Below, one piece after another: positions 3,969-58,852 of a stretch of DNA of 64,000 bases. The stretch comes from a bacterium. GTDB taxonomy: Bacteria > Auribacterota > JABMQX01. The stretch lies in contig JAUYEE010000330.1 of NCBI GenBank assembly GCA_030691545.1, positions 459-64,458 on the forward strand, read 5' to 3'. A program made the position numbers and the translations under genes. The notes under the pieces are model-generated. The model saw nothing but the letters and a program-made list of their open reading frames with translations, searched no databases and was not told where the DNA came from. Positions within the stretch are counted from its first letter, which is position 1. Each line of letters starts with the position of its first letter.

Positions 3969-6647
3969 ATGGCGCCGTTTTCTCAAAGACTACTTTTCTT
4001 GAGTGCCTTCGTCTCTTCATTCATCGGACGGAGCTTACCTGGGCATGGACTTTCAGCCAACCCCGCTCGAGTGCCGGATGGCCCAGCGAACGAGGACCGA
4101 TTCGTATTCGTGGTGGAGTCCGATTGTGGGCGCGGCGGCGCTTATAACCTCGCCCTGAATCCTGATGCGTCCCGCCTGTATGTCGTCGGCGAATCCTCCT
4201 GGCTCGACATTCTCGACATCACAGACCCGTCCGCGATCCGCTCCGTCAATCAATCGCATGTGGACGGGCTGCCGTACGGTTCGGATGGCGAGTTCGGCAT
4301 TGCTTACGACCCCTTCTTCCAGAGGCTCGTCGCAGGAGGAGGCGCCGGGAGGAAGGTGCACCTGTTCGATGTCAGGGGCGACCAGTTGCGAGTCCTCGAC
4401 GCGGCTTATCCGCCGGAGCGACAGTTTCCGGCGGCGAATTTCCCTCCACTGATCGCGTCGCCTCCGATATTCGTGAAGGGAGGAAATGCCGTTGCCGTCG
4501 CGATGCTGACAGGCGGTTCAGCGGACGACCCGTCATCCGGGCAAAAGGTTTACTTCGGCGAGGGAATCACGCTTCTCTCCAGTGACCCGTTCACAGGAAA
4601 GATGTCCGTGGTTGATGAGGGAATCGGCGGCCTCTCGGCAGTCTATGGCCACGCTTACGACGCGAGGCGGGACATGTTGTGGTGCGGGGGAGGCGACGGC
4701 GCCGAGGCGGTGCTCGACTTCTCTAGCAGCGCCCTCTCCGAATGCCGCTGTTGGGCCGGCCCCCTCGACGAGGAAGGACCCCGCATTTCCCCCGATGTGC
4801 TCACTCGCGACGGGAGATGGCTTATCGAGCGAATCACGTCGCGCTTCCCGGCGAACGACTGGTCACTGCGCATCCGGCAGATCGAAGCCGCGAACGGCGA
4901 GTACTCGCTCTGGAACGCCGACATGCCAACGGACGGCGCCTCCCCTCGCCTTCTCGGCTCAGCCCCGGCTAACTGGAACAGCCACGCCGCTCCTTCGAGG
5001 CCCCTGTTGCCCTGTGTCCTCACCCACGACGAAACACGCCTCCTGACCGCGGAATCCGGGGGAAACGAGCTTCTCATCCTCGATATCACCGATAAAACCG
5101 CCTCTCCGCAATTCCTCTTTTCCGCAAACGTTGGAGACGGAGAGGAAATCCAATCCATCAAGGGTCACCGCAACCGGTTCTACGTTTCCCTCAAATCCGG
5201 CAGGATTCGCGTTTACCAATGGGGGTATGTCCAAAAACCCGATCCGCCGTCGGGTCTTTCCGCCGTCGCGTCCCCCACTGACCAGAGCATATTCCTCTCC
5301 TGGACGGCGCCATTGACGGGTGTTCCGCCGGTAGGCTACAACGTCTATCGCCGCACAGCCGAGATCTCCTTCAAGAAAGTCGCCTCCGTATCCGAAACCC
5401 AATGGACGGACGCGGCGACTGCGGAAGGCGAAACGTATTTCTATGCAGTACGCTCCTGCGCCCCGCAATACGGCCCCGTCGAAAGCGACGATTCCCCGGA
5501 AGTTCAGGCCACCACTGCCAGTGGCATTCCTCCGGTGAAGGTCCTCGGCCTCGCTGCCGCGCCGACTCTCGCGGGAATCATCCTGACCTGGCAACGCAAT
5601 CCGGAAGACGACGTCACGGGCTATCTCGTCTATCGCCGGACAGAAGGTGCCCTATTCGAGAAAATTACCCCCTCGCCCGTCGCCGAGGCGCGCTTCCTCG
5701 ATTTGGACCTGCTCGGCGGTGCGGACTACTCCTACTACGTCACGGCCGCGGATAGTCTATCCGAAGGACTGCCATCGGATGCGGTCACTGCCACGCCTGC
5801 CGACCGGACCGACAACCTCCTCCTCAACCCGGGAGCCGAGGAGCAGTGCACGCGAGGATGGGTCAATGCCAGCTCGATTCCTGCCCCCGACCCCGCGAAC
5901 CGTTATTCCTTTCACAACGACCTCTTCATCGGCGTCACGGACGCCTGTAGCGCCGAAGGGCAATGGGCTTTCTGGGCCGACCAGACGAAGGGAAGATATG
6001 ACCGCGAGACGGACACCTTCGTGGCCGAGACCTACCTCCTTGCCGCGTACCAGGATGTGGACGTAACCCCGTTTTCCAGTTTGATTGAGTCATCCGAAAG
6101 GAACATCGTCGCTGACTGGGGAGGACAAGTTATCCGAACCCCATCTGAACAATCCGCCATCCCCTGCATCGCCATCGAGTTCCTCAACACGCAGCAGACC
6201 GTCCTCGCAAGGCAGGAGCTTTCTTCCGAGAAAATGGGCGAATGGGATAACCTCTCATCCAGCGACCCCGTCCCCGCAGGCACAGTGAGCCTTCGCTTTT
6301 GGATGTTTGCCCAGGAAGTGAAAACCGCCCCCGCCAACGCCGCCTGGGACTCCCTGTCTCTGACTCTCCGCGAGGAACCGCCCCCTCAGCCGCCCGAGGT
6401 CACATTGCTTGCACAGCCGACAGGCATCCTCGTCGTCCTTTCCGTCACAAGTCCTTCGGCAAGCTATCAGATCGAATACACGGACAACCTCCCCGCCGGG
6501 GCGAACGACTGGAAACCCTGCGGCCCGGTCCTCATCGGCAACGGCAGCACCATTCAATGGCTCGACTCCCCTGACGAACCCGCCAATCCGACCAATCCAC
6601 CCGCTCACTCCGTCGAGCGCCGCTTCTACCGCGTCCGCCAGCAGTAA
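3969..6647 (+). CDS. Large secreted protein with beta-propeller-like repeats, fibronectin-III-like repeats and a C-terminal ...RFYRV domain
   Basis: Signal peptide MAPFSQRLLFLSAFVSSFIG. LVIVD-like repeats (LYVVGESSWLDILDITDP). Repeated PxSGLSAVAS...LSWTAP FN3-like units. Ends ERRFYRVRQQ. Confidence 0.5.
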   Translation: MAPFSQRLLFLSAFVSSFIGRSLPGHGLSANPARVPDGPANEDRFVFVVESDCGRGGAYNLALNPDASRLYVVGESSWLDILDITDPSAIRSVNQSHVDGLPYGSDGEFGIAYDPFFQRLVAGGGAGRKVHLFDVRGDQLRVLDAAYPPERQFPAANFPPLIASPPIFVKGGNAVAVAMLTGGSADDPSSGQKVYFGEGITLLSSDPFTGKMSVVDEGIGGLSAVYGHAYDARRDMLWCGGGDGAEAVLDFSSSALSECRCWAGPLDEEGPRISPDVLTRDGRWLIERITSRFPANDWSLRIRQIEAANGEYSLWNADMPTDGASPRLLGSAPANWNSHAAPSRPLLPCVLTHDETRLLTAESGGNELLILDITDKTASPQFLFSANVGDGEEIQSIKGHRNRFYVSLKSGRIRVYQWGYVQKPDPPSGLSAVASPTDQSIFLSWTAPLTGVPPVGYNVYRRTAEISFKKVASVSETQWTDAATAEGETYFYAVRSCAPQYGPVESDDSPEVQATTASGIPPVKVLGLAAAPTLAGIILTWQRNPEDDVTGYLVYRRTEGALFEKITPSPVAEARFLDLDLLGGADYSYYVTAADSLSEGLPSDAVTATPADRTDNLLLNPGAEEQCTRGWVNASSIPAPDPANRYSFHNDLFIGVTDACSAEGQWAFWADQTKGRYDRETDTFVAETYLLAAYQDVDVTPFSSLIESSERNIVADWGGQVIRTPSEQSAIPCIAIEFLNTQQTVLARQELSSEKMGEWDNLSSSDPVPAGTVSLRFWMFAQEVKTAPANAAWDSLSLTLREEPPPQPPEVTLLAQPTGILVVLSVTSPSASYQIEYTDNLPAGANDWKPCGPVLIGNGSTIQWLDSPDEPANPTNPPAHSVERRFYRVRQQ

Positions 6648-6874
6648 GGCTGCGCCGCCCGAGGCACTTTTGGACACTCATCTGAAATGGGCTTCCACCC
6701 TGTTTTGCACCCGGTGGTGCGCATGCCGAAGCCGACTTGAATTGGGCAAAACGCACTGCCGTCCGGGCGGAGACAAGGTCCTCGATCGCCGAAAGGGCGA
6801 AATAGCCTGACGCGAGCCTGGAACGAAGGCGGTCGTTTGTGCCGCCAAAATGCAGCCACACCCGTTCAGGGGGC

Positions 6875-6907: not shown

Positions 6908-7033
6908 GCAGATCTTCGGGGCTGGGTGAAATTCCCGGCCGGCGGTCAAGCCCGCGAGTCCTGCCGAGAGGCGGGACTGATCCGGTGAGATTCCGGAGCC
7001 GACAGTGAAAGTCTGGATGGAAGAAGATCTACA
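6908..7033 (+). ncRNA. FMN riboswitch (RFN element) aptamer
   Basis: Conserved RFN blocks are present: CTTCGGGGCTGGGTGAAATTCCCGGCCGGCGGT, AGCCCGCGAG, GATCCGGTGAGATTCCGGAGCCGACAGTGAAAGTCTGGATGGAAGAAG. P1 pairs AGATCTTC (6910-6917) with GAAGATCT (7023-7030). It lies directly upstream of ribBA and ribH. Confidence 0.85.
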
Positions 7034-11306: not shown

Positions 11307-11516
11307 TTGGCGGTCTATTCTGGCGTGGGTGATAGTGCGAGTGCTTTGATCAAACTGAAAGTCCCCAGGCTGCACAAGGGGATGATTCTAAAGCTCGATC
11401 TCGGGACGCAGTCGAAATGTATTCTGGCCGCGCTAGGCGGGGAAGTAGCGGTGCCCTGTAACCTGCAAACCGCTATAGCAGGGCTGAATTCCCGATTGAG
11501 GTTCTTAGCTACGGCC

Positions 11517-11660
11517 GGGGAACCAGGAGGGAAAGCGTTGAGTTCCGGGTCTCATGCAATGGAGTGTTGTGAACCCGGTCAGGACCGGAAGGTAGCAGCC
11601 GTAAGCAATTCCTCCATGTGCCGTGAGGCAACCTGGAAGGAGCAGACTCTCCTGGGAAAC
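11517..11660 (+). ncRNA. ffs: Signal recognition particle RNA (4.5S/ffs), domain IV core; 5' extent uncertain
   Basis: CCCGGUCAGGACCGGAAGGUAGCAGCC matches the universal SRP RNA helix-8 motif (GGUCAGGUCCGGAAGGAAGCAGCC). A closing helix pairs CCAGGAGGG with CUCUCCUGG. Position immediately upstream of dnaX-ybaB-recR is the classical ffs location. Confidence 0.7.
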
Positions 11661-11926
11661 CGTCCGTAAGCGGAGCCGATTGAGGGTGCGCGGCCAATCC
11701 TATAATTGGGCGAATTAGGCGGTCGATGTGACAGTAGATATGGGCGCGGCTGTATTAGCGTTGCTTGCCCTAATGGGCGCCGTTTGTGTCGCCGGCATCT
11801 TGCCCCCCTTCTGAGGGCGAGACGCCCTCAGGACAGCCGCCGAGACGGCGGCGTTACACCGGGAGTTCTGCCTCGCAAATACAGCTACACCAGCAGATAT
11901 GAAGAAGTGTTCGGTTCGATGAGGAG

Positions 11927-17181: not shown

Positions 17182-17365
17182 TTCGGTTTTGGGGTGTGGG
17201 GGTTGGGGGTTCGGGATTCGGGTGTTGGGCGGTACAGTCCCGTTGAGGTAACGCCGCCGTCTCGGCGGCACTCTCGAGGGCGTCTCGCCCTCGGAATCGG
17301 GGGCAAGATGCCCCCGAGACAGCCGGCAAGATGCCGGCGGTACAGCAGGAGATGGTAAAACCGCG

Positions 17366-19681: not shown

Positions 19682-19799
19682 TTTCGGATTGGGAATCTGC
19701 TTGGTGTCTTCGTGCCTTGGTGGTTAGCTGCTTGGGGTCCTTACCACGAAGGACACGAAGGGCACGAAGAGAGAAAAGCGCGAAGGGCGCAGACGGCAG

Positions 19800-22289: not shown

Positions 22290-22375
22290 GAGAAGTAGCG
22301 CAGGCGTCTCGCCTGCATGCTGCAAGCCGGAGGCTTGCGCCACATCATTCTGCGTTACCCCGAAGGAGAACAACC

Positions 22376-25968: not shown

Positions 25969-27108
25969 ATGAACATGGGCGAAACCACAAAGGACGCGAA
26001 GGGCGGGTTTAGGGGTTGGGGGATAGGGTTTGGCGACCCGGAATGCCCAATTCACGGTCCTCTACTCCCGAAACCCGAAACGCCATACCCCAAACCCGAA
26101 ACCCCGACCCCAAACCCCCGACCTGTCGCGGCGGTTGTGACAGCGTTGGCGGTTCTGGTCTGCCTCGCCGTGCAGGCGCCGAACGGATGGGGGGCCTTGT
26201 CCGCCGAGGCGAAGCAGGCGGTCGAGAAGGGACTCGATTATCTGGCGAAAACGCAGGGGTCGGACGGCTCGTGGCCGGACCACTACGGGAAAAGCCCGGC
26301 GGTTGTGGGGCTGGCGGCACTTGCGTTCATGGCTCACGGAGAAATGCCGGGCAGAGGGAAATACAAAGAGACGCTGGAGAGGGCGATTGACTACATCCTA
26401 AAACAGTCGCAGGAAAACGGGTTGATTGCCCGACCGGGAAGTCAGCCGATGTATGACCATGGCTTCGCGACGCTGGCGCTGGCGGAAGCATACGGCATGT
26501 CCAAAAGGAAGGACCTGGAGGTCGCACTTCTGCGAGCCGTGCGGCTGATCGAGCGTGTCCAGAACCTGCGCGGAGGATGGCGCTACCAGCCCCGGCCGGC
26601 AGACGACGACGTCACGGTGACGGGCTGCCAGTTGATGGCTCTGCGCGCCGCAAGGAACGCGGGCGTGAACGTCCAGAGCCTCGTTGTCCGGAGAGGGGTG
26701 GACTACATCAAGTCGTGCGCGTGTGCGGACGGCGGGTTCGCGTATCAGCCGGGAGGGTCGTCGGGGAAGGCAAGGACGGGCATAGGTGTTCTTCTGCTCC
26801 AGTTGCTTGGCGAAAGCGAATCGGCGCTTGTGGGCAAGGGAGCCGAGTATCTTGCCCAGAATCCCCTGCGTCCCGGGGAGACCTATTACTATTACGGGCT
26901 CTATTACTGCACGCAGGCCATGTTCCAGAAGGGGGGGGAATCCTGGCAGTCCTGGCGGAAGGAGGTTCTGGAAACCGTGGTCTCAACTCAAGTCGCGGAC
27001 GGGAGCTGGCCGAAGCAAGGCAGCGAGGGCGGCGATACGTATGCGGTGGCGATGGCGATCCTTGCCCTCGAGGTCGAATGGAAGTTACTCCCGATCTACC
27101 AGCGGTGA
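25969..27108 (+). CDS. Prenyltransferase / squalene-cyclase-like repeat (alpha-alpha toroid) protein
   Basis: Repeated DGSWPD / GGWRYQ / DGGFAYQ / DGSWPKQ motifs typical of the terpene cyclase/mutase repeat family. N-terminal Pro/Thr-rich linker. Confidence 0.65.
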   Translation: MNMGETTKDAKGGFRGWGIGFGDPECPIHGPLLPKPETPYPKPETPTPNPRPVAAVVTALAVLVCLAVQAPNGWGALSAEAKQAVEKGLDYLAKTQGSDGSWPDHYGKSPAVVGLAALAFMAHGEMPGRGKYKETLERAIDYILKQSQENGLIARPGSQPMYDHGFATLALAEAYGMSKRKDLEVALLRAVRLIERVQNLRGGWRYQPRPADDDVTVTGCQLMALRAARNAGVNVQSLVVRRGVDYIKSCACADGGFAYQPGGSSGKARTGIGVLLLQLLGESESALVGKGAEYLAQNPLRPGETYYYYGLYYCTQAMFQKGGESWQSWRKEVLETVVSTQVADGSWPKQGSEGGDTYAVAMAILALEVEWKLLPIYQR

Positions 27109-27199
27109 CACAGCCCGCCCGGCTGAACACGGATGGAACCACGAAGGACACGAAGATTGGAATTTGCGGGCGAGACGCCTGCGGTACTCGAGCACCAAG

Positions 27200-28711
27200 A
27201 TGACGCGTGACAGGATGATGAGAATTGCTGCGGGATGGATAGCTATCTGGCTTATCCTGAGCACCTTCTGTCTATACGGGCAGGCTTTTGCCGCGAGGGT
27301 CCCTCCGCCGCGAAGGGCGAGGCTTATCGCCCGCGCAAGTCCTGAGGAACCTTACTCGGCAGGTTATTACCCCTGGCCAAAGAACAGCGAAAAGCAGAAA
27401 ACGGAGTGGGACACCCTTCACCTGCGAAACGAGGACAAGGTGTCCGGGACGATCGAGCGAATCGCTGAAGGAGTGGCGGTGCTGCGGTCGGAGTTTTTGG
27501 CGGAGCCGATGCGAATACCGCTGAAAAATGTTCATGAGATTGGGTTCAAGGATAGAGTCGAAGAATCTTCTCGGCGGCAGGCGAAGGTGATTTTTGCGAA
27601 CGGGGACTCCTTGAGCGTTGATGTGACAGGATACGACGGGGAACGACTGACGGTGACGACTGATTTTGACCCGGAACGCCGGATAGGCAGGGAATACGTG
27701 TCGGGAATTATTTTCGAGCGAGACGCTCGTGTGGTGTACAGGGCAGACTTCGAGGACGGAAACTCTGCGGGATTCAAAAGCACAAGCGGAGAGTGGACGG
27801 CGTCGCGGGGCACGTTTGGCCCCTCGGAGGAAACAGAGTGGACCGGCGCCCACCTGAGACTTCGGCAGGAAGGGCACGTCAGGTACAGGTGGACGCAGAG
27901 CGAGGAGGACAATCGCGGGACGGAAGCGTGGCTCTCGTTTTTCGCCCGGCACTTCGACCACTACGCCCCGGGCGAAGCGTACCAGGTAAGGTCATCGCCG
28001 TTCAGCGTGACCCTTTACCGGACAATCCAAAACAACGCGCAGCATGTTGCGACGTTCGGTCTCTCAGAGAGGAAAAGCACACGGCGCTTCGAGGTGGAGC
28101 ACGATTCGCGGACGGGCTTGTTCCGTCTCAAGGTGGATGGGGAAGAACTCACGGCGGGGGTGTTTGCGTCGCCGATCCCGCGAGGAGAGTACGTCGTGCT
28201 CGGCGCACAGGCGAAGCACCGCTTTGACGATATTGTGATCGAGCAGGTCAGTGAAGCGGTTTTGCCCGAGGAGGGAGACGCGGCTGACCTCAAGGATTGC
28301 GTTCTGCTGACGAACGGAGACCGTCTCTCAGGAAAGGTCATTGCGCTTTCGGAAGGAAAGGCGAGGATCGAGACGGGCTACTCCGGGGGAACAACGGAGA
28401 TGCCAGTCACGGAGATTTCAGCGGTGCGGTTCGGTGGATCGGTTGAAACCGAGACCGCGGAACTGCCCGTCGTGCTTTTCCGGAATGGAGACCGGCTGAG
28501 CGCCGAGGTGGTTGGGTATGCCTTGCCGGACCCCGTAGCGCAGGCGTCTCGCCTGCAAACAAGGATGGCGGGCTCCTTGCGAGTGAAGAGTCTGTGCCTG
28601 GGAGAGCTCGAACTGGACGTGAAGAGCGTGTCCTCGGTGGATTTCGGCGGTGAGGAAGAGAATGCCGCGCCTTTTCCAGGCTCGTGGGAACCGGAGGCAG
28701 GGGATTCGTGA
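27200..28711 (+). CDS. Secreted protein, paralog 1 of a three-gene tandem family
   Basis: Signal peptide. Recurring NGD(S/R/K/I)(L/I)xG(E/K)V motifs (FANGDSLSVDVTGY, LTNGDRLSGKVIAL, LFRNGDRLSAEVVGY) shared with the next two genes. Confidence 0.5.
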   Translation: MTRDRMMRIAAGWIAIWLILSTFCLYGQAFAARVPPPRRARLIARASPEEPYSAGYYPWPKNSEKQKTEWDTLHLRNEDKVSGTIERIAEGVAVLRSEFLAEPMRIPLKNVHEIGFKDRVEESSRRQAKVIFANGDSLSVDVTGYDGERLTVTTDFDPERRIGREYVSGIIFERDARVVYRADFEDGNSAGFKSTSGEWTASRGTFGPSEETEWTGAHLRLRQEGHVRYRWTQSEEDNRGTEAWLSFFARHFDHYAPGEAYQVRSSPFSVTLYRTIQNNAQHVATFGLSERKSTRRFEVEHDSRTGLFRLKVDGEELTAGVFASPIPRGEYVVLGAQAKHRFDDIVIEQVSEAVLPEEGDAADLKDCVLLTNGDRLSGKVIALSEGKARIETGYSGGTTEMPVTEISAVRFGGSVETETAELPVVLFRNGDRLSAEVVGYALPDPVAQASRLQTRMAGSLRVKSLCLGELELDVKSVSSVDFGGEEENAAPFPGSWEPEAGDS

Positions 28712-28773: not shown

Positions 28774-30315
28774 GTGATTTCCATGGTTCGGCGAATGACA
28801 GAAAAAGCACGTAGCATCCCCTCAGCGTGGGCTCGCCCCGTAGCGCAGGCGTCTCGCCTGCAAATTCCGACGGCGCCCCGCCCGAAAGCATGGGCATTTC
28901 TTTTTGTGATGTGCGTGCTGTCGCCGGCATCGGCGCCGATTGCTCATCGAATGGAAAGGGAGTTCATCCCGGTGCCGGAAGGGGCGGGACAGGTCTCGGG
29001 GAGTTTCGAGAAACTGCCTCTGGAGGACGAACGGGACAGGGACGAAATCGTTCTGAAGAATGGAGATTCTCTTTCCGGGGAAGTGACCGGGATTCGTGGC
29101 GGAACCGTGTACTTTCACGCCGATATGGCGGAGGGGGAGATCAAGGCGACTTTCGCCAGTCTGAAAATCGCGTCTTTCAGGAAAAAAACGCAACGTGAGG
29201 GCCCAACCGTCGAGAACGCAGACACACGCCGTGGCACGGGCTTCCCGCCCGTGAGCGGGGAGGTCGCTCTGGTGGAAGGGGGGCGGTTTGGCGCGACGAT
29301 TCATCGGATGGAAGGATTGCCCGAGGGCGACGGCCCGAAAGATCGCTTATTCTTCTCGCCAGCTCCCTCCCCCGACTCGACTGAGATGTCGCTGGGACTG
29401 GACAAGATTGCGTCCGTCGCCTTCAGCCGCGAACCCCTGGTTCTTCTGAAAGCGGACTTCTCAGCCGCGAATTCCTCGCCATTCACAGCGAACGAAGGGG
29501 AATGGGTCGTGTACGACGGGCGATTCTTGCAGAGCGACCCGAGTCAGCACAATGCAACAGCCTACGTGCGGGTGAAACAGCAGGGCCTTATGCAGTACTC
29601 GTGGACGTTGCATAAGACAGATTGGGGGCATGCAGGCGTGTACATCTTAGCTTCGGAACAGAAGCCCGGAAATGGGAGCCAGGGATACCGAATTCATCTG
29701 GAACACGGTCGCCTTGTCTTGTACAAGGTGGAGGAAGGGGGAGAGAGCCAGGGTTTCTGGTGTCCGGTCGCACCGGGAATGACAACAGCGCGGATCGAAG
29801 TGCTATACAACTGCCCGGCGCGAAGAATCCAGATATGGCTCGATGGACGGCAGGTCGCGCACCTCAGCGACATCGGTTCCCCTGTGCAAGCCGGAGACTA
29901 CGTGGTCCTTCTAACGGTGGGACGAGCAGCATTTGACGATGTGCGGGTTGAGCAGCTCGGCGGGGATGCGACCGTAGCAGAAGAGGAGGCGGGAAAGGAC
30001 GTGGTGGTCCTCAGCAACGGGGATAGAATTGCCGGGGAAGTCGTGGAGATTTCGAAGGACAAGGTGGTTGTTGCGCGAGCGTTGCCCGCCCGTTCAGGGC
30101 CCGAGAATCTCGCGATGGACCGCGGCAAGATGCTGCGAGTGGTATTCGGCGGGCGGACATGTATCCCGGTGAAGCGGTCGAGTATCGTTTTCTGGGATGA
30201 AACCCGACTCGAAGGGGACGTAGGCTCGCTTGAGAATGACATTGTCGAAGTGCAGAATCCGGTGCTGGGCCGCGTTCGGTTTCGCGCGGCGGCTGTAAAA
30301 TGCATTCTCTTTTAA
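28774..30315 (+). CDS. Secreted protein, paralog 2 (5' end uncertain; the track's N-terminal extension contains a hairpin repeat)
   Basis: Hydrophobic signal-like segment (KAWAFLFVMCVLSPASAPIA) and the shared motifs LKNGDSLSGEVTGI, VLSNGDRIAGEVVEI. Confidence 0.45.
   Translation: MISMVRRMTEKARSIPSAWARPVAQASRLQIPTAPRPKAWAFLFVMCVLSPASAPIAHRMEREFIPVPEGAGQVSGSFEKLPLEDERDRDEIVLKNGDSLSGEVTGIRGGTVYFHADMAEGEIKATFASLKIASFRKKTQREGPTVENADTRRGTGFPPVSGEVALVEGGRFGATIHRMEGLPEGDGPKDRLFFSPAPSPDSTEMSLGLDKIASVAFSREPLVLLKADFSAANSSPFTANEGEWVVYDGRFLQSDPSQHNATAYVRVKQQGLMQYSWTLHKTDWGHAGVYILASEQKPGNGSQGYRIHLEHGRLVLYKVEEGGESQGFWCPVAPGMTTARIEVLYNCPARRIQIWLDGRQVAHLSDIGSPVQAGDYVVLLTVGRAAFDDVRVEQLGGDATVAEEEAGKDVVVLSNGDRIAGEVVEISKDKVVVARALPARSGPENLAMDRGKMLRVVFGGRTCIPVKRSSIVFWDETRLEGDVGSLENDIVEVQNPVLGRVRFRAAAVKCILF
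28836..28865. repeat. Palindromic element CCCCGTAGCGCAGGCGTCTCGCCTGCAAAT (type copy; other copies listed in findings)
   Basis: The identical 30-mer recurs reverse-complemented at 32385-32414. The core hairpin is GCAGGCG-TCT-CGCCTGC. Confidence 0.8.
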
Positions 30316-30494: not shown

Positions 30495-31985
30495 GTGAGA
30501 AATCTCGCACTGTTTGTTAGTTGCGCCGCGATTCTTCTTTCCCTCGCGGGTACGTGCGGCGGACAGACGCGACTCCCCCAAGGCGTCACAGTCCAGCGCG
30601 TCGCGCCGGAAGAAGAGGTGAACCAGGACTACGTGCGTTTCGCGAACGGAGACATCCTTACAGGGGAGGTCTGGGAAATTGCCGACGGAGAGGTGCGGAT
30701 CATGCCGGAGATGGCGGGCCTGCCCGCGCTCGCGCGCAAGCCTCGGACTGGGCCCAGCGCACCGTGCGCGCTTCCGGGCGGCGCCGGCCCGAACGGCCAG
30801 GGCCTGCCCGCATTGGCGCGGCTGAACGGGCAGGGGAGGTCTGTGGCGATTCCGGTCGAGGCGGTGAAGGAGGTCGTCTTCAAGGACAACGAAAAGCGCA
30901 GCCCTTTCGCGGCTGAGCGACTGGTATTGGTGAACGGCGAATCGCTGCCCGCGAGGGTCATCGGAGTGCGCGAAGGCAAAATCGTCGCGCAGTTGCCATG
31001 CGTAACGCCGCCCCGCCCTGCGGGGCACCCTTCCTTGAACCAGGTGGAAATCAGCGTCGCCGACGTGGCGGCGATAGGCTTCTACCGAAAGGAGGAGACT
31101 CTCGCGGAGGAAGGGTTTGCCTCGGGGCTTCCGCCAACGATGCGCTTCGAGGGGGGACGATGGTGCATCCAGAACGGGTGGCTTCTCCAGACAATTTCGC
31201 AGGCGACGGAAAGTTTCGCCTCTCTGCCGCTGAGCCAGACGGGTGTGGTGGCGTACGAGTGGACCGTTAACACGACGGTCGGGCGCAGCACCGGTCTGTA
31301 TTTCATGGCGAGCGACCCGGGGCTATCTCAGAAAAGGGCTTATTTTGTCAGAGTTCTGAGGAATTACGTTTACCTGTACTTGCGTACGGACAACCAAGAG
31401 GTTTACTGCGGGAGCTACCGGATTTCTCTTTACAGAAGCCGCAACGAGGTACGCTTGACCTGTGATTCCGATCACGGGCTTATCGAGGCGAGCATAGACG
31501 GTTCGCAGGTGGGGCGCTGGCTTTCGTCAGTTCCGATCAAGATGGGGAAGTATGTGGTTTTCCGAGCGGATGGTCGGGCGGCATTCGATGATTTCAGGAT
31601 CGTTCAGAAGGCGGGCGCCGCGCGACCCGATGTGAAGGGTGAGCGAGAGGAAGGCACTATCCTGCGGCTGGTCAATGGGGATAAGATATTGGGGAAGATG
31701 ACCGGAATTTCGGACAGCCTTGTATCGTTCTCCTTGGGAGAAGGACAACCCGCATTCGACCTCGAAAAGGACAGGCTGCTGTACGTTCGCTTTGACCGGG
31801 AGGTGAGCAATCCGCCGGTTGCAGTGGCGGGAACAGTCGTGGTCAAGACGCAGAGCGACGACAGGATTTCGGGAGAACTGGTTTGGCTTAACAAAGATGG
31901 AGCCCGGATAAAGTCGGGTCTGGCTGGAACGCTCGACCTTCCCCGGGAGGATGTGAAAAGAGTGATATTCAGGGAGTTCCCGTGA
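30495..31985 (+). CDS. Secreted protein, paralog 3
   Basis: Signal peptide MRNLALFVSCAAILLSLAGTCGG. Motifs FANGDILTGEVWEI, LVNGDKILGKMTGI. Confidence 0.5.
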   Translation: MRNLALFVSCAAILLSLAGTCGGQTRLPQGVTVQRVAPEEEVNQDYVRFANGDILTGEVWEIADGEVRIMPEMAGLPALARKPRTGPSAPCALPGGAGPNGQGLPALARLNGQGRSVAIPVEAVKEVVFKDNEKRSPFAAERLVLVNGESLPARVIGVREGKIVAQLPCVTPPRPAGHPSLNQVEISVADVAAIGFYRKEETLAEEGFASGLPPTMRFEGGRWCIQNGWLLQTISQATESFASLPLSQTGVVAYEWTVNTTVGRSTGLYFMASDPGLSQKRAYFVRVLRNYVYLYLRTDNQEVYCGSYRISLYRSRNEVRLTCDSDHGLIEASIDGSQVGRWLSSVPIKMGKYVVFRADGRAAFDDFRIVQKAGAARPDVKGEREEGTILRLVNGDKILGKMTGISDSLVSFSLGEGQPAFDLEKDRLLYVRFDREVSNPPVAVAGTVVVKTQSDDRISGELVWLNKDGARIKSGLAGTLDLPREDVKRVIFREFP

Positions 31986-34201
31986 AAGAGCGTATTCTCG
32001 AATTGCTTTCTTCAAAAGACTACGTGCTGATGACGCGAAACGCTATCAGCGAGGCGCTATTGTTGAAAAAGGGGGAGCGGCTGGAGCTGCGAAGAGCGCT
32101 GAAGGAGCTGATGGCGGAGGGGAGAGTGATTCGGACAGACCGTCGCCGGTATTCCCTCGTCGCGCAACACCGGAGTCCCGGTCCCCAAGCCCGGACCCGC
32201 GACGCAGGCAGGTTGGCGGCGGGGGTGCTCAAGGGGCATCCGCGGGGTTTTGGCTTTGTGATTCCCGATGATAAGTCCATCGCCGACATCTATATTCATC
32301 GTGAGAACATGTCCACAGCGCTCGATGGAGACAAGGTCCTCGTGCGGCTGTTTTCGCCATACGGAAGGGGGGAACACCGGAATTTGCAGGCGAGACGCCT
32401 GCGCTACGGGGCGGGTCGCGGCGAAAGGCGGGGCCCGGAAGGAGAGATTGTCGAGGTCGTCGAGCGGTCGAATAAGGAAATTGTGGGCGAACTCCGGCAA
32501 AGCGGGCACTTTTACTACGTCATGCCGGAGAATCGGGGCATTTTCCAGGACATCTACATCAGCCCGGAGGATTTGAAAGGGGCGAAAGTCGGCGACCGGG
32601 TTGTGACGAAAATAACGGAGTGGGAGTCGAAGCACCTCAACCCCGAAGGAACTATCGTAAAGGTCCTCGGGGACAGCGAGGACTGGCGGACGGATTTGGC
32701 GTCCGTGATGATACGGTTCGGGTATCGGCGGACGTTCCCGGCGGAGACGAACGCGGAGGCAGCGGCCGTGCCGGATGAAATCGGCGAGGAAGAGCTTGCG
32801 AGGAGGAGAGACCTCCGCGGACAGGCCACCTTCACCGTTGACCCGGAGGACGCGAAGGATTTCGATGATGCGATCAGCCTGGAGAGAATCGAGAAGGGCG
32901 GATGGCTTCTGTCGGTTTCCATCGCCGATGTAGCGTACTATGTGAAAGAGGAATCAGAGCTTGATCTGGAGGCTCGCCGGAGAGGCAACAGCGTCTATTT
33001 GCTCAACGATGTCGTTCCGATGCTTCCACGGCGGCTTTCGAGCGACCTGTGCAGCCTGAAAGAAGGATGTGACCGGCTGACGAAGACGGTGGCGATGTCT
33101 TTCAGCAAGCAGGGCGTTCTGAAAGAGTACGAGATATTCGATTCGGTGATTACCTGCAAGCACCGGTTTAGTTTCAAGGAGGTCAACGAGGTTCTGGGCC
33201 AGGAGAGAGAGTCTCCACACAAGGAAATCTTGGAAGAGATGGTGGAGCTGGCGCGAGTTCTTCGCGGGCGGAGAGTTGACCGGGGCGCAGTTGTCTTCGA
33301 CATGCCGGAAGCCAAAGTGGCGTTCGGCGATGACGGCAGCATCGCGGGCGTCGAGGCGGTTCGCCAGGGACAATCGGAGAGCCTGATCGAGGAATTCATG
33401 CTGGCGGCGAATGAGACTGTCGCAAGGCATCTGCGAAGGCACAGAACGCCGACGATTTACCGGGTTCATGACGAGCCGGACAGCGCCAAAATGGAGGAGT
33501 TTTGCCAGGTTGCGAGGGCGTTCGGCTACAAGTTGCCGAAGTTCCCCTCGCGGGAGGACGTGAATCGGGTTATCGCGGAGGCTCAGGGAAGAGCGGAATC
33601 GTACCTGGTTAACCTCGCCTTCCTTCGTTCGCTGAAGATGGCTGAGTATTCCGTGAAAAACCGGGGGCATTACGGTCTGGCGTCAAAGAACTACCTCCAT
33701 TTCACGTCGCCGATTCGCCGCTATCCGGACTTAGTGGTGCATCGCTGCCTCGATTCGTTGAGGGACGGCGCCGGGAAGCCCGAACGTCCAGGGAGAGAGG
33801 CCCCCGAGAAGGAAGGGCTGGCGGAGATCGCCGCAAACTGCTCGGAAACCGAGCGCCGGGCGGATGCCGCAGAGAGAGAAGTTGTCGAGGCGGCGACGTT
33901 GCGGTATCTTCAAGGGATATACCGGCGCGAGCCGGGGCGACTGTTCCGGGGCGTGGTCACGGACGTCTCGCGGTACGAGATCACCGTGTTCCTGCCGGAA
34001 TTTCTGATTGACGGGAGCATTCGACTGAAGTCGCTGGTTGGGGACTTTTACCGATATGATCGAAAATCAGCAAAGCTGACTGGCGTGCGCACGCGAAGAA
34101 CGTTCCAGAAAGGGCAGCTTGTCAAGGTCACCGTGCGGGGGGTGGATGTCATTCGCAAAGAGCTCGAGCTGGAGCTCGTGAGCGGTTGGCGCCCACGATG
34201 A
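31982..34201 (+). CDS. rnr: Ribonuclease R
   Basis: N-terminal HTH, cold-shock-like GHPRGFGFV, RNB catalytic core (VTIDPEDAKDFDDAIS), C-terminal S1-like domain. Confidence 0.9.
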   Translation: MKERILELLSSKDYVLMTRNAISEALLLKKGERLELRRALKELMAEGRVIRTDRRRYSLVAQHRSPGPQARTRDAGRLAAGVLKGHPRGFGFVIPDDKSIADIYIHRENMSTALDGDKVLVRLFSPYGRGEHRNLQARRLRYGAGRGERRGPEGEIVEVVERSNKEIVGELRQSGHFYYVMPENRGIFQDIYISPEDLKGAKVGDRVVTKITEWESKHLNPEGTIVKVLGDSEDWRTDLASVMIRFGYRRTFPAETNAEAAAVPDEIGEEELARRRDLRGQATFTVDPEDAKDFDDAISLERIEKGGWLLSVSIADVAYYVKEESELDLEARRRGNSVYLLNDVVPMLPRRLSSDLCSLKEGCDRLTKTVAMSFSKQGVLKEYEIFDSVITCKHRFSFKEVNEVLGQERESPHKEILEEMVELARVLRGRRVDRGAVVFDMPEAKVAFGDDGSIAGVEAVRQGQSESLIEEFMLAANETVARHLRRHRTPTIYRVHDEPDSAKMEEFCQVARAFGYKLPKFPSREDVNRVIAEAQGRAESYLVNLAFLRSLKMAEYSVKNRGHYGLASKNYLHFTSPIRRYPDLVVHRCLDSLRDGAGKPERPGREAPEKEGLAEIAANCSETERRADAAEREVVEAATLRYLQGIYRREPGRLFRGVVTDVSRYEITVFLPEFLIDGSIRLKSLVGDFYRYDRKSAKLTGVRTRRTFQKGQLVKVTVRGVDVIRKELELELVSGWRPR

Positions 34202-34204
34202 GAT

Positions 34205-34300
34205 TGCCCTGTGATGCTTCGTGTGCTTCGTGCGCTTCGTGGTGAAGGGGGCCGCTTTTCTCATCACGAAGGACGCGAAGGGCACGAAGAGAGAAAGGCA
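34205..34300. repeat. Inverted array of CTTCGTG / CACGAAG 9-mer repeats (type copy)
   Basis: GCTTCGTGTGCTTCGTGCGCTTCGTGG ... CACGAAGGACGCGAAGGGCACGAAGAGAGAAA. Similar arrays occur at 19700-19790, 25925-25995, 27130-27160, 43800-44040, 45130-45190 and 51300-51420. Confidence 0.75.
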
Positions 34301-34308
34301 CAAAGACT

Positions 34309-35565: not shown

Positions 35566-35862
35566 GCGAAGGCTGTGGTCCGCAGCGCCTGAATCCGGGA
35601 CATGCGCCGCGCGGAGGCGTGGCGGGGTCCGCCGAACTGTAGACGCGGCATCTTGCCCCGGATGGGCGGTGCTGGAAGCCACTTCTACTGACGTGGCCCC
35701 GCGATGCTCCTCCTTCCCGAAGCTTTCGCGGCCTGGCCTGACGTGATATACTACGCTTACGTCCGCTTGGCAGTAAGCACTTGAGCTTCCCAGGGCGCAC
35801 ACAGCGGACGGCGCCAGGTGGCCGGTTCTCAAGCCCCAACCAGCGACGCAAGGAGGTGGACG

Positions 35863-38814
35863 ATGTTCTGCCCAAAATGTGGCAGCCTGCTGCAGACGGG
35901 CGCTCAACACTGTCCGGGATGTGGGACAAGCCTCGAGGAGGCCTTTTCAGAAGCCGGGCCGGAAAAGGGCAAAAAGAAGCAGTCTAAGAAGGAAAAAGCC
36001 GCAGCAGAGGTGCTTGCACAGGAGCAGCGCCTGAGGCACGCGGAGGTACTCAGGCAGCAAGCCGAACCATTGAAGTTGAGAGGAACTGAACCCGTACCAA
36101 AAGCGAAAACGACGCAAGAGCAAGAAAAAACTGAGCCACAAGAGGAAACCCACGAGGAGTGGAAAGTCAGGTTCAAGGACGGGACGGTCTTCGCTCCTGT
36201 GAACTACGACACCCTGATGGAGTGGTTCAAATCAGGGCAAATTGATCAAGAAACCCCGGTCGCCAGGAACGCCCTTACCGCCGAATGGGTGCCCTTCAAA
36301 GATACGAAGGAGTCTGTCACAGCCCAGGCGAAGAAAGAAGGAGAGCAACTTTTCTGTACGAGCTGCGGTGCAGCGTGGCCCGTTGGGACGAAGTTCTGCA
36401 CGAAGTGCGGCACAAACATCGAGACCGGCGAGAAGATCGGAGGGGTCGGCGAAAAGCGCCCTGAGACGGTAAAGCGCCGGGGCAAAACACTTGCGCCCGC
36501 CGCGGCGCCGCAGACACCGGCGCCGGCGCCAGCGCCCGCCGCAGAAGTCTTCGAGGCGCAGGAGGTTGCAGAAGCAGAAGTGGCGGTTGAGGCGCCTGTG
36601 GAGGCAGAGGTTCCCGAAGCCCTCGCGCCTGAGGCGGCCCCGAGGAAAGGAAAGAGAAAGGTTGTGATGGCGGCGGCGGTGCTGGCGGTGGTTGTGGCGG
36701 CGTTGGCGGTGCTCGCCCCCGACCGGATGTCGGGCGTTCTCGATAAGGTCAAGGGGCTTGTGGGCGTGAAGCGAACGAAGCCGTCGGAAGCGCCACCTTC
36801 CCGGGCGGGAGCAGTCAGGGATGAGCGGTCGGTGGTTGAGTCTCTCCGGGGACACATCACCAGCGTTCTCGGAACAGTTCCTTTTTCGGGGCAACGGCGG
36901 GCGGATTTTGACGACGGTGCTGACGGTGTCCTGAAGATGGCCGCCGAGGAATTCTCGGACACCGAAAAGCTCGGCGAGTTTGCAGCGGCTCTAACGTCCG
37001 GGGAATTGCGCAAAGCCCGGAGTCTCCTCGAAGATGAAAAGGAGCAGGCGGGGACGGACTACGAGACCCCCGCCATAGACGCGATGCTCGCGAGCGTCGA
37101 GATTCTGCTCGGAGAGAAAAGCGGCCTGGAACTTCTCGGGAAAGCTATGAGCGATCCGGACGTCGCGCAAGCGGCGGCGAGCTTTTGCCGGGGAGCCGTC
37201 GAGGGATGCCTCGACAAGTTATTGCCGGAGCTGGGCAAGAAAGACCCGTGGGGGGCCGCCGCGGAGATTCTCGGAGCGAACAAGGACAGCATCACAGACG
37301 AGTTCCTTGCCCGACACGCGGGGCAGGCGCTTGCGGGGATGGCGACATTGCACGCGCTCACTGGCGAGTCCGCGTCCGGCCGTAGCGCAGGCGTCTCGCC
37401 TGCAGATCCCCGTGGGGCAGGCAAACCGAAAGGAATTCGGACAAAGGCGTTTCTGAGGTTTTTCAGCAGGGGAAATCCTTCGGTGCAGGCGGCACTGGTT
37501 GAGTTAGGACAGAGCCAGCCCAGGAAGGGCAGTGCTCTGCTGAAGAACGAGCCCCTGCGAGTGGCGTATGCCCTGCGGCTGATCTCCGAGCGGACGGAAG
37601 GGAACAATGGCAAGGAAGATGAGCTTCTTGACCTGTTGAAAGAAGGGATAGTCTCCCACCCGCAGAACGCCTTCTACCATTACGCTCTGGCGGCGGCGTA
37701 CTTCCTCGAAAATAAGGTGGATGAAGCTGCGCGCGAACTCGCGGCGGCGAACGAAAAGCCAATGTACGACGATTTCCGGGAGGAACGAGCTGGCGGCATG
37801 GTGGACATCCTGGACACCCTTGCCCCCTGCACGGCGGCGGCGATGGAGGCGTCCTCAGCTCATCTTTCCGCGCTGGCAAAAGGCTCTCGCGGCTATCTTG
37901 ATGCGATCGGGTCGTATCTCCGCGTCGGAAGAAGGCAGGAGGCTTTTCAGATGCTCGGCGAGTGGCGGAAGGCGTGCGAAAGGCTGCGGGCAGAAGCCTC
38001 GTCTTTGCCCGAAGTCGCGGCGATGGTCAGTGCCGCCGTTCCGGCAATGGCAATAGAAGCGGACTACTACAGGAGGGACGGCGACCAGGTCGGGGCGTGG
38101 CGAGTGCGAAAGGCGTTTATGGAGGCGGAGAGAGCCGCGATGGCGGTCAACTACGGAGCCACGTACGGACCGACCGCGGTTGTTTTTGTGAAGGAGGTTT
38201 TTTCGGAAAAGGGATATGAAGAGGAATTCCTGGCGACGGCTCCGCGAGAAGTGCTTGCGGGCGTTCTTTCAAAGGCGAGCGAGCGACTGGATGCGCTCTT
38301 GAAGCAGGACCCGGCAAGCGTGGCGCTGCCCGCGGCGAACCTCCAAGACCCCTATTTTGCCCAGGCGAAGCAGGCACTCGACCAGCGGAGCTTCGAGCGT
38401 GCATTCGATTATGGTTATGCGTGCCTGGCGCGCAACCCGGGCCACCTCTGGGCGTTCAAGGTGATGGAGGAAGCGGTGAAGAACACGAGCATCGCCGCCG
38501 AACTCGAGGGGCCGCGTCCCGTTCCCTATTTAGTTGTTGCGAAGAGGGATGCCAACACGCCCGTCGCGAAGCGAGTCATGTACGACATTCAGGTTGCGAG
38601 GGGCACAACGAAAGAGGAAGCGGTCGCCACGGTCCGGACGGCGCTCCAGGGATTCCTCCGCCGGGAGAAGCCGGATGCGGTTCGTATCTGCCTTCTGCGT
38701 GAGGGAAGCCAGATTCCTTTTGTGACCCTCGACTGGGCGCCGGGAGGAGACTGGGACAAAGCCCACACCGGCACACCGGACTCCGAGTTTAGGGAAAGAC
38801 TCACTGCGTTGTGA
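35863..38814 (+). CDS. Large zinc-ribbon / GYF-like (DUF4339-like) / TM / helical-repeat protein
   Basis: Two CxxC-x-CxxC ribbons (CPKCGSLL...CPGCG and CTSCGAAW...CTKCG), a WKVRFKDGTVFAPVNYDTLMEWFKSGQI GYF-like module, an Ala/Pro-rich linker and a TM helix. AAGGAGGTGGA RBS before ATG 35863. Confidence 0.5.
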   Translation: MFCPKCGSLLQTGAQHCPGCGTSLEEAFSEAGPEKGKKKQSKKEKAAAEVLAQEQRLRHAEVLRQQAEPLKLRGTEPVPKAKTTQEQEKTEPQEETHEEWKVRFKDGTVFAPVNYDTLMEWFKSGQIDQETPVARNALTAEWVPFKDTKESVTAQAKKEGEQLFCTSCGAAWPVGTKFCTKCGTNIETGEKIGGVGEKRPETVKRRGKTLAPAAAPQTPAPAPAPAAEVFEAQEVAEAEVAVEAPVEAEVPEALAPEAAPRKGKRKVVMAAAVLAVVVAALAVLAPDRMSGVLDKVKGLVGVKRTKPSEAPPSRAGAVRDERSVVESLRGHITSVLGTVPFSGQRRADFDDGADGVLKMAAEEFSDTEKLGEFAAALTSGELRKARSLLEDEKEQAGTDYETPAIDAMLASVEILLGEKSGLELLGKAMSDPDVAQAAASFCRGAVEGCLDKLLPELGKKDPWGAAAEILGANKDSITDEFLARHAGQALAGMATLHALTGESASGRSAGVSPADPRGAGKPKGIRTKAFLRFFSRGNPSVQAALVELGQSQPRKGSALLKNEPLRVAYALRLISERTEGNNGKEDELLDLLKEGIVSHPQNAFYHYALAAAYFLENKVDEAARELAAANEKPMYDDFREERAGGMVDILDTLAPCTAAAMEASSAHLSALAKGSRGYLDAIGSYLRVGRRQEAFQMLGEWRKACERLRAEASSLPEVAAMVSAAVPAMAIEADYYRRDGDQVGAWRVRKAFMEAERAAMAVNYGATYGPTAVVFVKEVFSEKGYEEEFLATAPREVLAGVLSKASERLDALLKQDPASVALPAANLQDPYFAQAKQALDQRSFERAFDYGYACLARNPGHLWAFKVMEEAVKNTSIAAELEGPRPVPYLVVAKRDANTPVAKRVMYDIQVARGTTKEEAVATVRTALQGFLRREKPDAVRICLLREGSQIPFVTLDWAPGGDWDKAHTGTPDSEFRERLTAL

Positions 38815-45061: not shown

Positions 45062-45261
45062 GGACTGCACGCTACGATATTTGTGATGCAGGCTTCCAGC
45101 CTGCCGCCGCGGGAGGATCCCGCCGGGAAGGCTCTCTCTTGCATCCCTTCGTGTCTTCGTGCCTCTTCGTGTTTCTTCGTGGTCGCCTCTTTTCTCCTCC
45201 CTTTTCCATCCTTGCCATAGAGACACAAGGGCACACAGCAGGGCAGGGTGTTGCGTGCTCC

Positions 45262-58536: not shown

Positions 58537-58659
58537 GCCCCGAACGGGCGCAATAGTCCAATGCCACTGTGATAGAGCCGCATCCCCTGAATTCTACCAC
58601 TATCGCTCGGCGCGGCTACAGATGAGTGGCAACAGTGGAAGCCGGGCCATAGTTGGCCG

Positions 58660-58796
58660 TACCGCCGGCATCTTGCCGGCTGTCTGGGGGGCATCTTGCC
58701 CCCCATTGAGGTGCTCCGCGCTGAAGCGAGTGGCTGTGGCCATCGCCTTCTGAGGGCGGGACGCCCTCAGGACAGCCGCCGAGACGGCGGCGTTAC
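58660..58796. repeat. Cluster of GC-rich triloop hairpins (GCCGGCA-TCT-TGCCGGC, GGGGGCA-TCT-TGCCCCC, TGAGGGCG-GGA-CGCCCTCA, GCCGCCG-AGA-CGGCGGC)
   Basis: The same composite element recurs at 11788-11857 and, inverted, at 17247-17345. Confidence 0.8.
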
Positions 58797-58852
58797 CTCT
58801 CGCAAGCCCCCCATTGAGATGCCAACGACCCACTGAAACGTAGCCACACGCA

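Follow-up and report, generated by a model that had tools for sequence, protein, structure and literature searches.

Repetitive extragenic palindromic (REP) sequences have been sorted into two super-families, GTAG-tagged and CGTC-tagged, of which the GTAG repeats occur in Proteobacteria, Cyanobacteria, Chloroflexi and the Planctomycetes-Verrucomicrobia-Chlamydiae (PVC) superphylum (Di Nocera, De Gregorio and Rocco 2013, PMC3733652). The same paper describes 'REPtrons' of REP-associated tyrosine transposases (RAYTs), and in the published work on the subject REPs and their inverted doublets (REPINs) count as non-autonomous elements whose mobilisation depends on single-copy RAYTs. In-frame copies of GTAG REPs inside genes were already documented there; they are most numerous in Opitutus terrae, and Additional file 3 names dozens of genes (among them hrpA, uvrA, dnaE2 and a ligase gene) together with encoded peptides such as GTGVPPV and HGRDARAT. 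Two Rickettsia palindromic elements (RPEs), RPE-4 and RPE-6, are treated as CGTC-tagged REPs without a dedicated transposase, and miniature inverted-repeat transposable elements (MITEs) as sequences of 70-300 bp with terminal inverted repeats derived from insertion sequences (PMC3733652). Here we describe a short palindromic repeat in a 64,000-nt stretch of the Auribacterota contig JAUYEE010000330.1 (assembly GCA_030691545.1; the whole stretch is called the window below), in which six copies lie in and between genes. We consider it probable, at about 85%, that the element is a GTAG-tagged REP mobilised by a RAYT and that its surviving intragenic copies are tolerated in-frame insertions.

The repeat unit and its copies in the window

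The core of the element is the 23-mer GTAGCGCAGGCGTCTCGCCTGCA, found six times in the window, five times exactly and once with two mismatches; the copies are spread over 15 kb and all lie within 22-37.5 kb of the window (Table 1). No copy is expected by chance, as none of 100 dinucleotide-preserving shuffles contained any match. The unit is composed of an unpaired GTAGC head, a 7-bp stem (GCAGGCG/CGCCTGC), a TCT loop and a subsequent A, and its hairpin folds as single-stranded DNA with -8.6 kcal/mol (z = -2.75). The longest conserved unit is the 36-nt CGCCCCGTAGCGCAGGCGTCTCGCCTGCAAATTCCG, with the copy at 28834-28869 being identical to the inverted one at 32378-32413, and the form in this lineage can be written (CGCCCC)GTAGC-GCAGGCG-TCT-CGCCTGC-A(AATTCCG), with a size of 23-36 nt. 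The head reads GTAG in five of the six window copies and GTAC in the remaining one; among the genome loci listed (see below) it reads GTAG in 134 of 134 copies, but GTAG belonged to the search pattern. Since a GTAG head in front of a short GC-rich hairpin is the signature of REPs, the element is classed as a GTAG-tagged REP. An original prediction, made from the sequence alone, had described a six-copy element with the hairpin GCAGGCG-TCT-CGCCTGC, and both the element and its coordinates, these to within about 10 nt, proved right.

Table 1 Positions of the focal repeat, related hairpins and an empty insertion site in the window
Feature	Position	Strand	Remarks
REP copy 1	22295..22317	+	intergenic; GTAGC-GCAGGCG-TCT-CGCCTGC-A; starts 6 nt past vWA gene stop
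Partner hairpin of copy 1	22322..22343	-	different stem: GTGGC-GCAAGCC-TCC-GGCTTGC
REP copy 2	27165..27187	-	2 mismatches (GTACC, CGCCCGC); intergenic
REP copy 3	core 28535-28557	+	within 45-nt in-frame insertion 28523..28567 of paralog-1
REP copy 4	28834..28869, core 28840-28862	+	5' end of paralog-2 open reading frame
Sister REP in paralog-2	29218..29247	+	30-nt in-frame insertion; GTGG-CACGGGC-TTCCC-GCCCGTG; peptide RGTGFPPV
REP-like hairpin in paralog-3	30996..31028	+	33-nt in-frame insertion; GTAAC-GCC-GCCCCGC-CCT-GCGGGGC
REP copy 5	core 32385-32407, insertion 32369..32413	- (inverted)	inside rnr
Empty site 2 of rnr	33194..33217	+	GTT CTG GGC CAG GAG AGA GAG TCT; coordinates estimated from alignment codon positions
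REP copy 6	core 37382-37404, insertion 37372..37413	+	inside gene of 998-aa zinc-ribbon protein
Four-hairpin intergenic cluster	17245..17346		GTAAC-GCCGCCG-TCT-CGGCGGC ... GCCGGCA-AGA-TGCCGGC-GGTAC; similar to bacterial interspersed mosaic elements (BIMEs) or REPINs
Similar intergenic hairpin clusters	2064-2113, 11779-11857, 58656-58799		
Single hairpin	45088-45104		

Three of the copies are certainly intragenic, one is uncertain and two are intergenic. Close relatives that were assembled independently (L119, L120 and L148) have the same copies at matching positions, so that an assembly artefact is ruled out for the window copies. Copy 1, as predicted, stands between genes directly after the vWA gene; together with its partner hairpin it forms an inverted, heads-outward heterodimer resembling a REPIN, the two hairpins folding with -17.4 kcal/mol (z -3.0). 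Copy 2, correctly anticipated as an intergenic variant, lies 57 nt past the stop of a prenyltransferase-like gene and ends 12 nt ahead of the likely ATG of paralog-1 (27200).

Five of the six reading frames of the element are open, and only frame +2 contains a stop, the TAG of the GTAG head. In different genes, three frames are in use, giving PVAQASRLQ (+1), SAGVSPA (+3) and NLQARRLRY (-1), and because one DNA sequence is read in three frames and orientations it must be regarded as an inserted DNA repeat and not as a protein module. The in-frame insertions measure 45, 45 and ~42 nt in the window and 39 nt at a second rnr site of relatives, and they encode 13-15 residues rich in Ala, Gly, Ser, Pro and Arg. 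That copies in genes are multiples of 3 nt, keep the frame in both orientations and encode PVAQASRLQ, NLQARRLRYG and RSAGVSPAD had been foreseen and is borne out here.

For the copies at 28535, 32385 and 37382, conserved protein sequence runs on in the same frame on both sides of the repeat. Paralog-1, a secreted protein (coding sequence ~27200-28711), carries 15 extra codons, LPDPVAQASRLQTRM, at 28523-28567 in its C-terminal part. In the alignment, the syntenic orthologue in L123, a relative with 73% identical RNase R and no copy of the focal repeat in 22 kb, lacks these codons, and after the insert the C-terminal 40 residues (with GSLRVKSLCLGELELDV downstream) align in frame with it. In the gene of the 998-aa zinc-ribbon protein (35818-38814), the ~42-nt in-frame insertion ASGRSAGVSPADPR, about 14 residues, is common to the window and to P0121 and P0122 (89-92% identity), and absent from P0123-P0133; its GRSAGVSPAD segment is missing in nine homologues at 48-59% identity.

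The third case, rnr (31982-34201), encodes a full RNase R with OB_RNB, CSD2, RNB and S1 matches; the nearest named protein, from Verrucomicrobiota, is 46-49% identical to the RNase R of the host lineage. In an alignment of 18 sequences, accompanied by a codon alignment, 15 extra codons, GEHRNLQARRLRYGA on the gene strand, occupy window positions 32369-32413 (site 1). The window shares them with the three sequences nearest to it, P0001 (96-98% identity), P0002 and P0003 (83%), and they are missing in 11 orthologues at 64-73% identity and in three more distant ones (P0004-P0016, P0022). The flanking blocks DGDKVLVR and EGEIVEVVER are conserved in frame, and the peptide across the repeat junction reads GEHRNLQARRLRYGAGR. 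The original prediction had proposed to compare orthologues, and for RNase R, paralog-1 and the 998-aa protein alike orthologues without the peptide segments were found. Judged from these alignments, each of the three copies was inserted in frame into a real gene and is specific to the lineage.

In an AlphaFold2 model of RNase R with a mean predicted local distance difference test (pLDDT) score of 77.6, residues 126-150 have a pLDDT below 50 and no secondary structure and stand between predicted strands 118-123 and 153-161, which places the insert in a predicted disordered loop within the first cold-shock/OB domain. Mapping the insertion onto a structure had been suggested beforehand; the expected location inside rnr held, the one between the helix-turn-helix (HTH) and cold-shock domains did not. 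Two further lineage-specific inserts of rnr, RSPGPQARTRDAG at 32171-32209 in the linker between HTH and CSD1 and five codons at 33794-33808 (aligned either as PERPG or as REAPE), likewise fall in disordered parts of the model, and no clear REP hairpin was found in either.

Copy 4 would read PVAQASRLQIP if translation of paralog-2 begins at 28774-28795, as its predicted place in the 5' part of the open reading frame (ORF) demands; otherwise it belongs to the 5' untranslated region. A coding role is plausible, though unproven, because no in-frame start codon stands between the repeat and the hydrophobic signal segment.

Distribution in other genomes and association with RAYTs

Further copies, whose existence the original prediction had made a matter for genome-wide searching, are numerous: at least 118 loci were retrieved with the exact 22-mer when one genome per species was scanned, and 105 loci with a 25-mer in a metagenome scan, where L148 alone comes from the lineage of the window. 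The lineage-specific 31-mer CCGTAGCGCAGGCGTCTCGCCTGCAAATTCC gave no match in the metagenomes. Among the genome matches listed, to which the counts in this and the next paragraph refer unless stated otherwise, the hosts are Verrucomicrobiota, Hydrogenedentota, Planctomycetota, Cyanobacteria, Acidobacteriota, Nitrospirota, Armatimonadota, Beta- and Gammaproteobacteria and one Bathyarchaeia metagenome-assembled genome (MAG), and several MAGs carry many repeat loci. In the archaeal case (L042 476-497, DATKVG010000019.1) the exact 22-mer occurs once in a contig binned as Bathyarchaeia, which could reflect mis-binning or horizontal transfer.

An inverted partner within 90 nt was present for 60 of 110 copies, a frequent layout being GTAGCGCAGGCGTCTCGCCTGC, a spacer and GCAGGCG[AG]GACGCCTGCGCTAC, that is, an inverted heads-outward doublet (REPIN). 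Of 110 copies at least 300 nt away from a locus end, 46 (42%) had 80 or more open codons to either side in one reading frame, against 62% for random positions in the same loci, and in the metagenome set 35% against 62%, the measure being a crude one. Nine of these ORFs are real multi-domain proteins in which Pfam domains flank or span the repeat: DnaE (twice, in the HHH_6 domain), aconitase, RecJ (DHH domain), GlmS, MetH (linker), GcvP, DsbD (linker) and hydantoinase B (HyuB).

A connection to RAYTs is seen in a Verrucomicrobiota MAG (L086), where a gene with HUH and Tyr motifs, located by a regular expression for HUH...Y, has doublets of the focal repeat on both sides (2832/2904 and 3543/3606) and matches the NCBIfam family NF047646, REP-associated tyrosine transposase (E 2.7e-17, 63 bits). 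Its homologues number more than 2,000, many of them named RayT by JGI, in Verrucomicrobiota, Planctomycetota, Hydrogenedentota, Kiritimatiellia and Victivallales, and in L128 and L129 such homologues are flanked by sister repeats of the type GTAG-N4GGCG-TCY-CGCCN4. A phmmer search with Escherichia coli RayT (NC_000913) gave no match in any ORF of the window and the 118 loci, a profile of 120 RAYT homologues detected no RAYT beyond that of L086, whether in the window or at the REP loci, and a PDB sequence search with the L086 segment returned chance matches only. Comparison of the window with the named REP loci by blastn and blastp yielded no close match.

It should also be noted that the L086 transposase stands inside another gene. 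In this MAG (SPRUCE 541, JBEKSU010000031.1), a stop-free frame of 961 codons (L086:1407-4289, +) encodes a DinG-type helicase with an in-frame interruption of about 270 residues, in which the RAYT-family transposase stands between two REP doublets; residues 43-485 and 757-957 of the frame are the only parts to which E. coli DinG (6FWR) can be aligned, and no stop codon separates the transposase from either helicase half. Several RAYT homologues (P0141, P0197, P0205, P0213) are recorded as fusions with unrelated domains or names (Tyr_Deacylase, Methylase_S, HsdR), which suggests either read-through of the gene caller into neighbouring genes or cassettes in frame as in L086.

Proposed mobility, persistence and alternative explanations

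According to the reading we prefer, that of a RAYT-mobilised GTAG REP, the elements would be short non-autonomous hairpin repeats, single or paired as REPINs, that depend on a RAYT for their copying in trans. This HUH/Y1 enzyme, a relative of TnpA of IS200/IS605, would recognise the hairpin and the GTAG head on single-stranded DNA. New copies would land anywhere, and those within genes would survive selection where the added bases are divisible by three, the copy is read in one of its five frames without a stop and the site is a tolerant loop or linker; a surviving intragenic copy would then be translated as 13-15 residues. The movement by a RAYT, the single-stranded DNA step and the near-neutral passenger status of the intragenic copies are what we infer.

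The history of single copies can be followed in rnr. At site 1, the 36-nt copy is perfect (no changes) in the window, L119, L120 and L148, and its orthologues in L121 and L122 have changed at 9 and 12 of the 36 positions. Four-fold degenerate rnr sites differ by 35% between these lineages (Jukes-Cantor distance 0.48), from which about 8 neutral changes per lineage are predicted against none seen in the lineage of the window; this asymmetry could come about if the hairpin is under selection, if copies are rewritten by re-copying or gene conversion, or if the element was inserted anew. At site 2, after KEVNEVLG, L120 carries a perfect copy in + orientation (SAGVSPAHSHGPA, 39 nt), the copies of L121 and L122 deviate from it by 1 and 3 mismatches, and the site is empty in the window and in the outgroup L123. 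The RNase R of L120 (P0001) is 96-98% identical to that of the window and its DNA 96-99% identical across the shared region. The surroundings of site 2 are the most divergent stretch between the two: a single 500-nt bin holds 61 differences, the 39-nt gap among them. Comparison of filled and empty sites revealed no duplication, with boundaries that are ambiguous by a few bases. Between window and L120 the copies show no differences in ~205 nt against ~1.4% in the flanks, which is not significant.

Several of these data weigh against the reading of a RAYT-mobilised, near-neutral repeat. The preservation of site 1 in the window lineage with decay in the sisters is not predicted for neutral passengers, and because site 2 lies in a stretch of raised divergence, the difference there may be due to recombination with an insert-free allele and not to clean excision or insertion; no mobility event was directly observed. 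The window copies are mostly singlets, a partner being present only at copy 1 and having a different stem. No RAYT gene is found in the 64-kb window, which is a part of the genome, or in its syntenic loci, the NF047646 match of the L086 gene, at 63 bits, falls short of the 80 bits set as equivalog cutoff, and with Pfam Y1_Tnp the gene scores only marginally (22.9 bits for a threshold of 23).

A pattern comparable to rnr site 1 was observed in three Verrucomicrobiota MAGs, the DnaE genes of which (L077:3441-7184, L089:4778-7999, L097:3-3308) share the site of a REP doublet, which lies within the HHH_6 domain and ahead of IRFGLAAIKGVG. Both arms of the doublets are near-identical, the 10-nt spacer is wholly different and four-fold sites differ by 41-45%; either the arms are conserved or a hot spot has been hit repeatedly, and the left arm is biased by the selection of loci. 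The asymmetry at rnr site 1, the arms of the dnaE doublets and the in-frame REPIN-RAYT-REPIN cassette in dinG together suggest, tentatively, that intragenic REP and REPIN copies might be actively kept intact, be it by a cis function in mRNA or DNA or by RAYT-dependent re-copying, which we regard as possible although on the whole doubtful.

A related and in our view unlikely explanation is that the repeats serve their host in cis, as RNA or DNA hairpins stabilising mRNA 3' ends, attenuating transcription or translation or binding gyrase or IHF, and are kept by selection. The intergenic copies just past stop codons or between co-directional genes occupy the usual position of REPs (PMC3733652), and the unchanged site-1 copy and the near-identical DnaE arms are what selection would leave behind; yet conservation could arise equally by re-copying, gene conversion or repeated insertion at hot spots, and loci picked by an exact match to one arm are biased for that arm. 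A gene-specific role is difficult to reconcile with unrelated host genes and insertion sites in loops, and the tails (AAATTCC, AAACAAG, AGATCCC, ATGCTGC) have no T-run, which rules out an intrinsic terminator. A cis function would in any case be compatible with a transposon origin.

Spread and homogenisation without a dedicated transposase, by template switching at forks or by gene conversion, with the RAYT link being incidental here, is improbable. The lack of a RAYT gene in the window and its syntenic loci, the predominance of singlets and the identity of copies over 36 nt are in line with such a process, and CGTC-class REP families do exist without a dedicated transposase (PMC3733652); however, the window represents only 64 kb of a genome and RAYTs are typically single-copy, the focal repeat does flank a RAYT-family gene in L086, and the GTAG head is conserved although it is not part of the stem, which indicates recognition by a protein. 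It is very improbable that copies only seem intragenic because ORFs were extended mechanically through GC-rich sequence, with the real genes beginning after or ending before the repeats. The copy at 27165 is indeed placed upstream of the likely ATG at 27200 and yet inside an L120 gene call (5170-6801), the copy at 28840 is ambiguous, and the same caution on N-terminal copies is given in PMC3733652, but the copies at 28535, 32385 and 37382 are flanked on either side by conserved sequence and Pfam domains in frame, and the same in-frame continuity is seen in nine genes from elsewhere. An old protein motif with a function of its own is hardly conceivable as the source of the shared peptides, for although PVAQASRLQ and SAGVSPA recur, the copies are identical as DNA, are read in three frames or orientations to give unrelated peptides, occur also between genes and are missing from all more distant orthologues.

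The finding explains a class of short lineage-specific insertions in conserved proteins of uncultured PVC-like and Hydrogenedentota-like bacteria, segments which are repeat DNA and not domain innovations and which confuse the calling of start codons and yield apparent gene fusions. In-frame REP insertion was described in 2013 for a handful of cultured species, and metagenome-scale data now show it to be widespread, with the identical 22-mer inside dnaE, aconitase, recJ, metH, glmS, gcvP, dsbD and rnr genes across many MAGs. Because orthologous copies have decayed unevenly, they can be used to examine if REP/REPIN populations are being maintained or are merely tolerated; active upkeep, if true, would make housekeeping proteins long-term 'safe harbours' for a vertically inherited replicator.

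Other repeats of the window and comparison with known systems

Beside the focal repeat, the window contains sister families of a common design with different stems, for example GTAAC-GCCGCCG-TCT-CGGCGGC, GTACC-GCCGGCA-TCT-TGCCGGC and GTGG-CACGGGC-TTCCC-GCCCGTG. The insertions of paralog-2 (29218-29247) and paralog-3 (30996-31028) have no counterpart in L123. Paralog-3 further contains two adjoining lineage-specific in-frame inserts of 24 and 15 codons (window 30714-30839), both of which encode GLPALAR and fold as long hairpins and may represent a further palindromic repeat family that was duplicated. The L123 paralog-3 has its own 63-nt in-frame insertion (L123:8877-8939), two hairpins with inverted GGAGTGC heads resembling a REPIN of another family. 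In paralog-1 of L120, an 84-nt in-frame insertion (PARVRAEASAPGEGTERASSGGRGERPG, L120:5590-5673), strongly structured with -27 kcal/mol and missing in the window and in L123, is another recent indel, of an unassigned repeat family.

A dispersed motif of another kind forms tandem CACGAAGG(A/G)CACGAAG units at 19740-19794, 25984-26001, 27138-27155 and 34260-34305, and the motif appears as reverse complement at 19700, 43824 and 45147. It is located at most about 100 nt upstream of, or just inside, the starts of the vWA, prenyltransferase-like, paralog-1 and proA genes and may be a regulatory or leader motif. The RNAs identified in the window are a large-type bacterial signal recognition particle RNA (11428-11693, 181.9 bits), with the REP cluster of 11779-11857 directly after it, and a flavin mononucleotide riboswitch (6908-7032, 116.2 bits); no rRNA is present in the window. 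GC skew is positive throughout window positions 8001-50000 (0.08-0.24, ~40 kb), and in the examined 17-40 kb stretch the long ORFs with high GC at third codon positions lie on the + strand.

Among the described systems, MITEs such as Correia/NEMIS, ERIC and Nezha are like the element in being small non-autonomous repeats in or near genes, and they differ from it in that it consists of a single short hairpin with an asymmetric GTAG head. MITEs usually come with target-site duplications. With inserted DNA of 39-45 nt, a single asymmetric hairpin and no visible target duplication, a MITE was ruled out. RPE-1, at roughly 100-150 bp, has several times the length of the element. The likeness to RPEs (Ogata et al. 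2000, 2002, as cited in PMC3733652) claimed by the original prediction is a matter of behaviour, in-frame palindromes that leave genes open, in unrelated proteins, at tolerant sites and in a lineage-specific manner, and does not extend to the family: by the descriptions of the two, the element is set apart by its 23-36 nt, its terminal GTAG in place of CGTC, its link to RAYTs and its host outside Rickettsia. A literature search joining REP with RPE phrases returned no paper.

The closest system are the GTAG REPs, REPINs and REPtrons (Nunvar et al. 2010; Bertels and Rainey 2011, PMC3116915; PMC3733652), especially GTAG-17 to GTAG-20 of O. terrae. Shared with them are the 5' GT[AG]G tag, a GC-rich stem of 6-9 bp and a loop of 2-3 nt, inverted dimers, several families per genome, probably also a high number of dispersed copies, most of them shortly past the ends of genes, further a RAYT-family gene between repeats (here in other genomes), and a sizeable minority of copies in frame in known genes, including those of replication and repair, where they encode 7-30 residues; the RGTGFPPV insert of the window resembles the GTGVPPV peptides of O. 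terrae GTAG-19. The focal-family peptides (AGVSPA, AQASRL, GETPAL and similar ones) and stem were not found in the supplementary text of PMC3733652, the Figure 1 of which stands outside this comparison. Unlike the GTAG REPs described, the window copies are mostly singlets and the host lineage is uncultured. Half of the focal copies in the window are intragenic. The phenomenon as such is already published for GTAG REPs, and what the window adds is a new host lineage and a new, or differently represented, member of the family.

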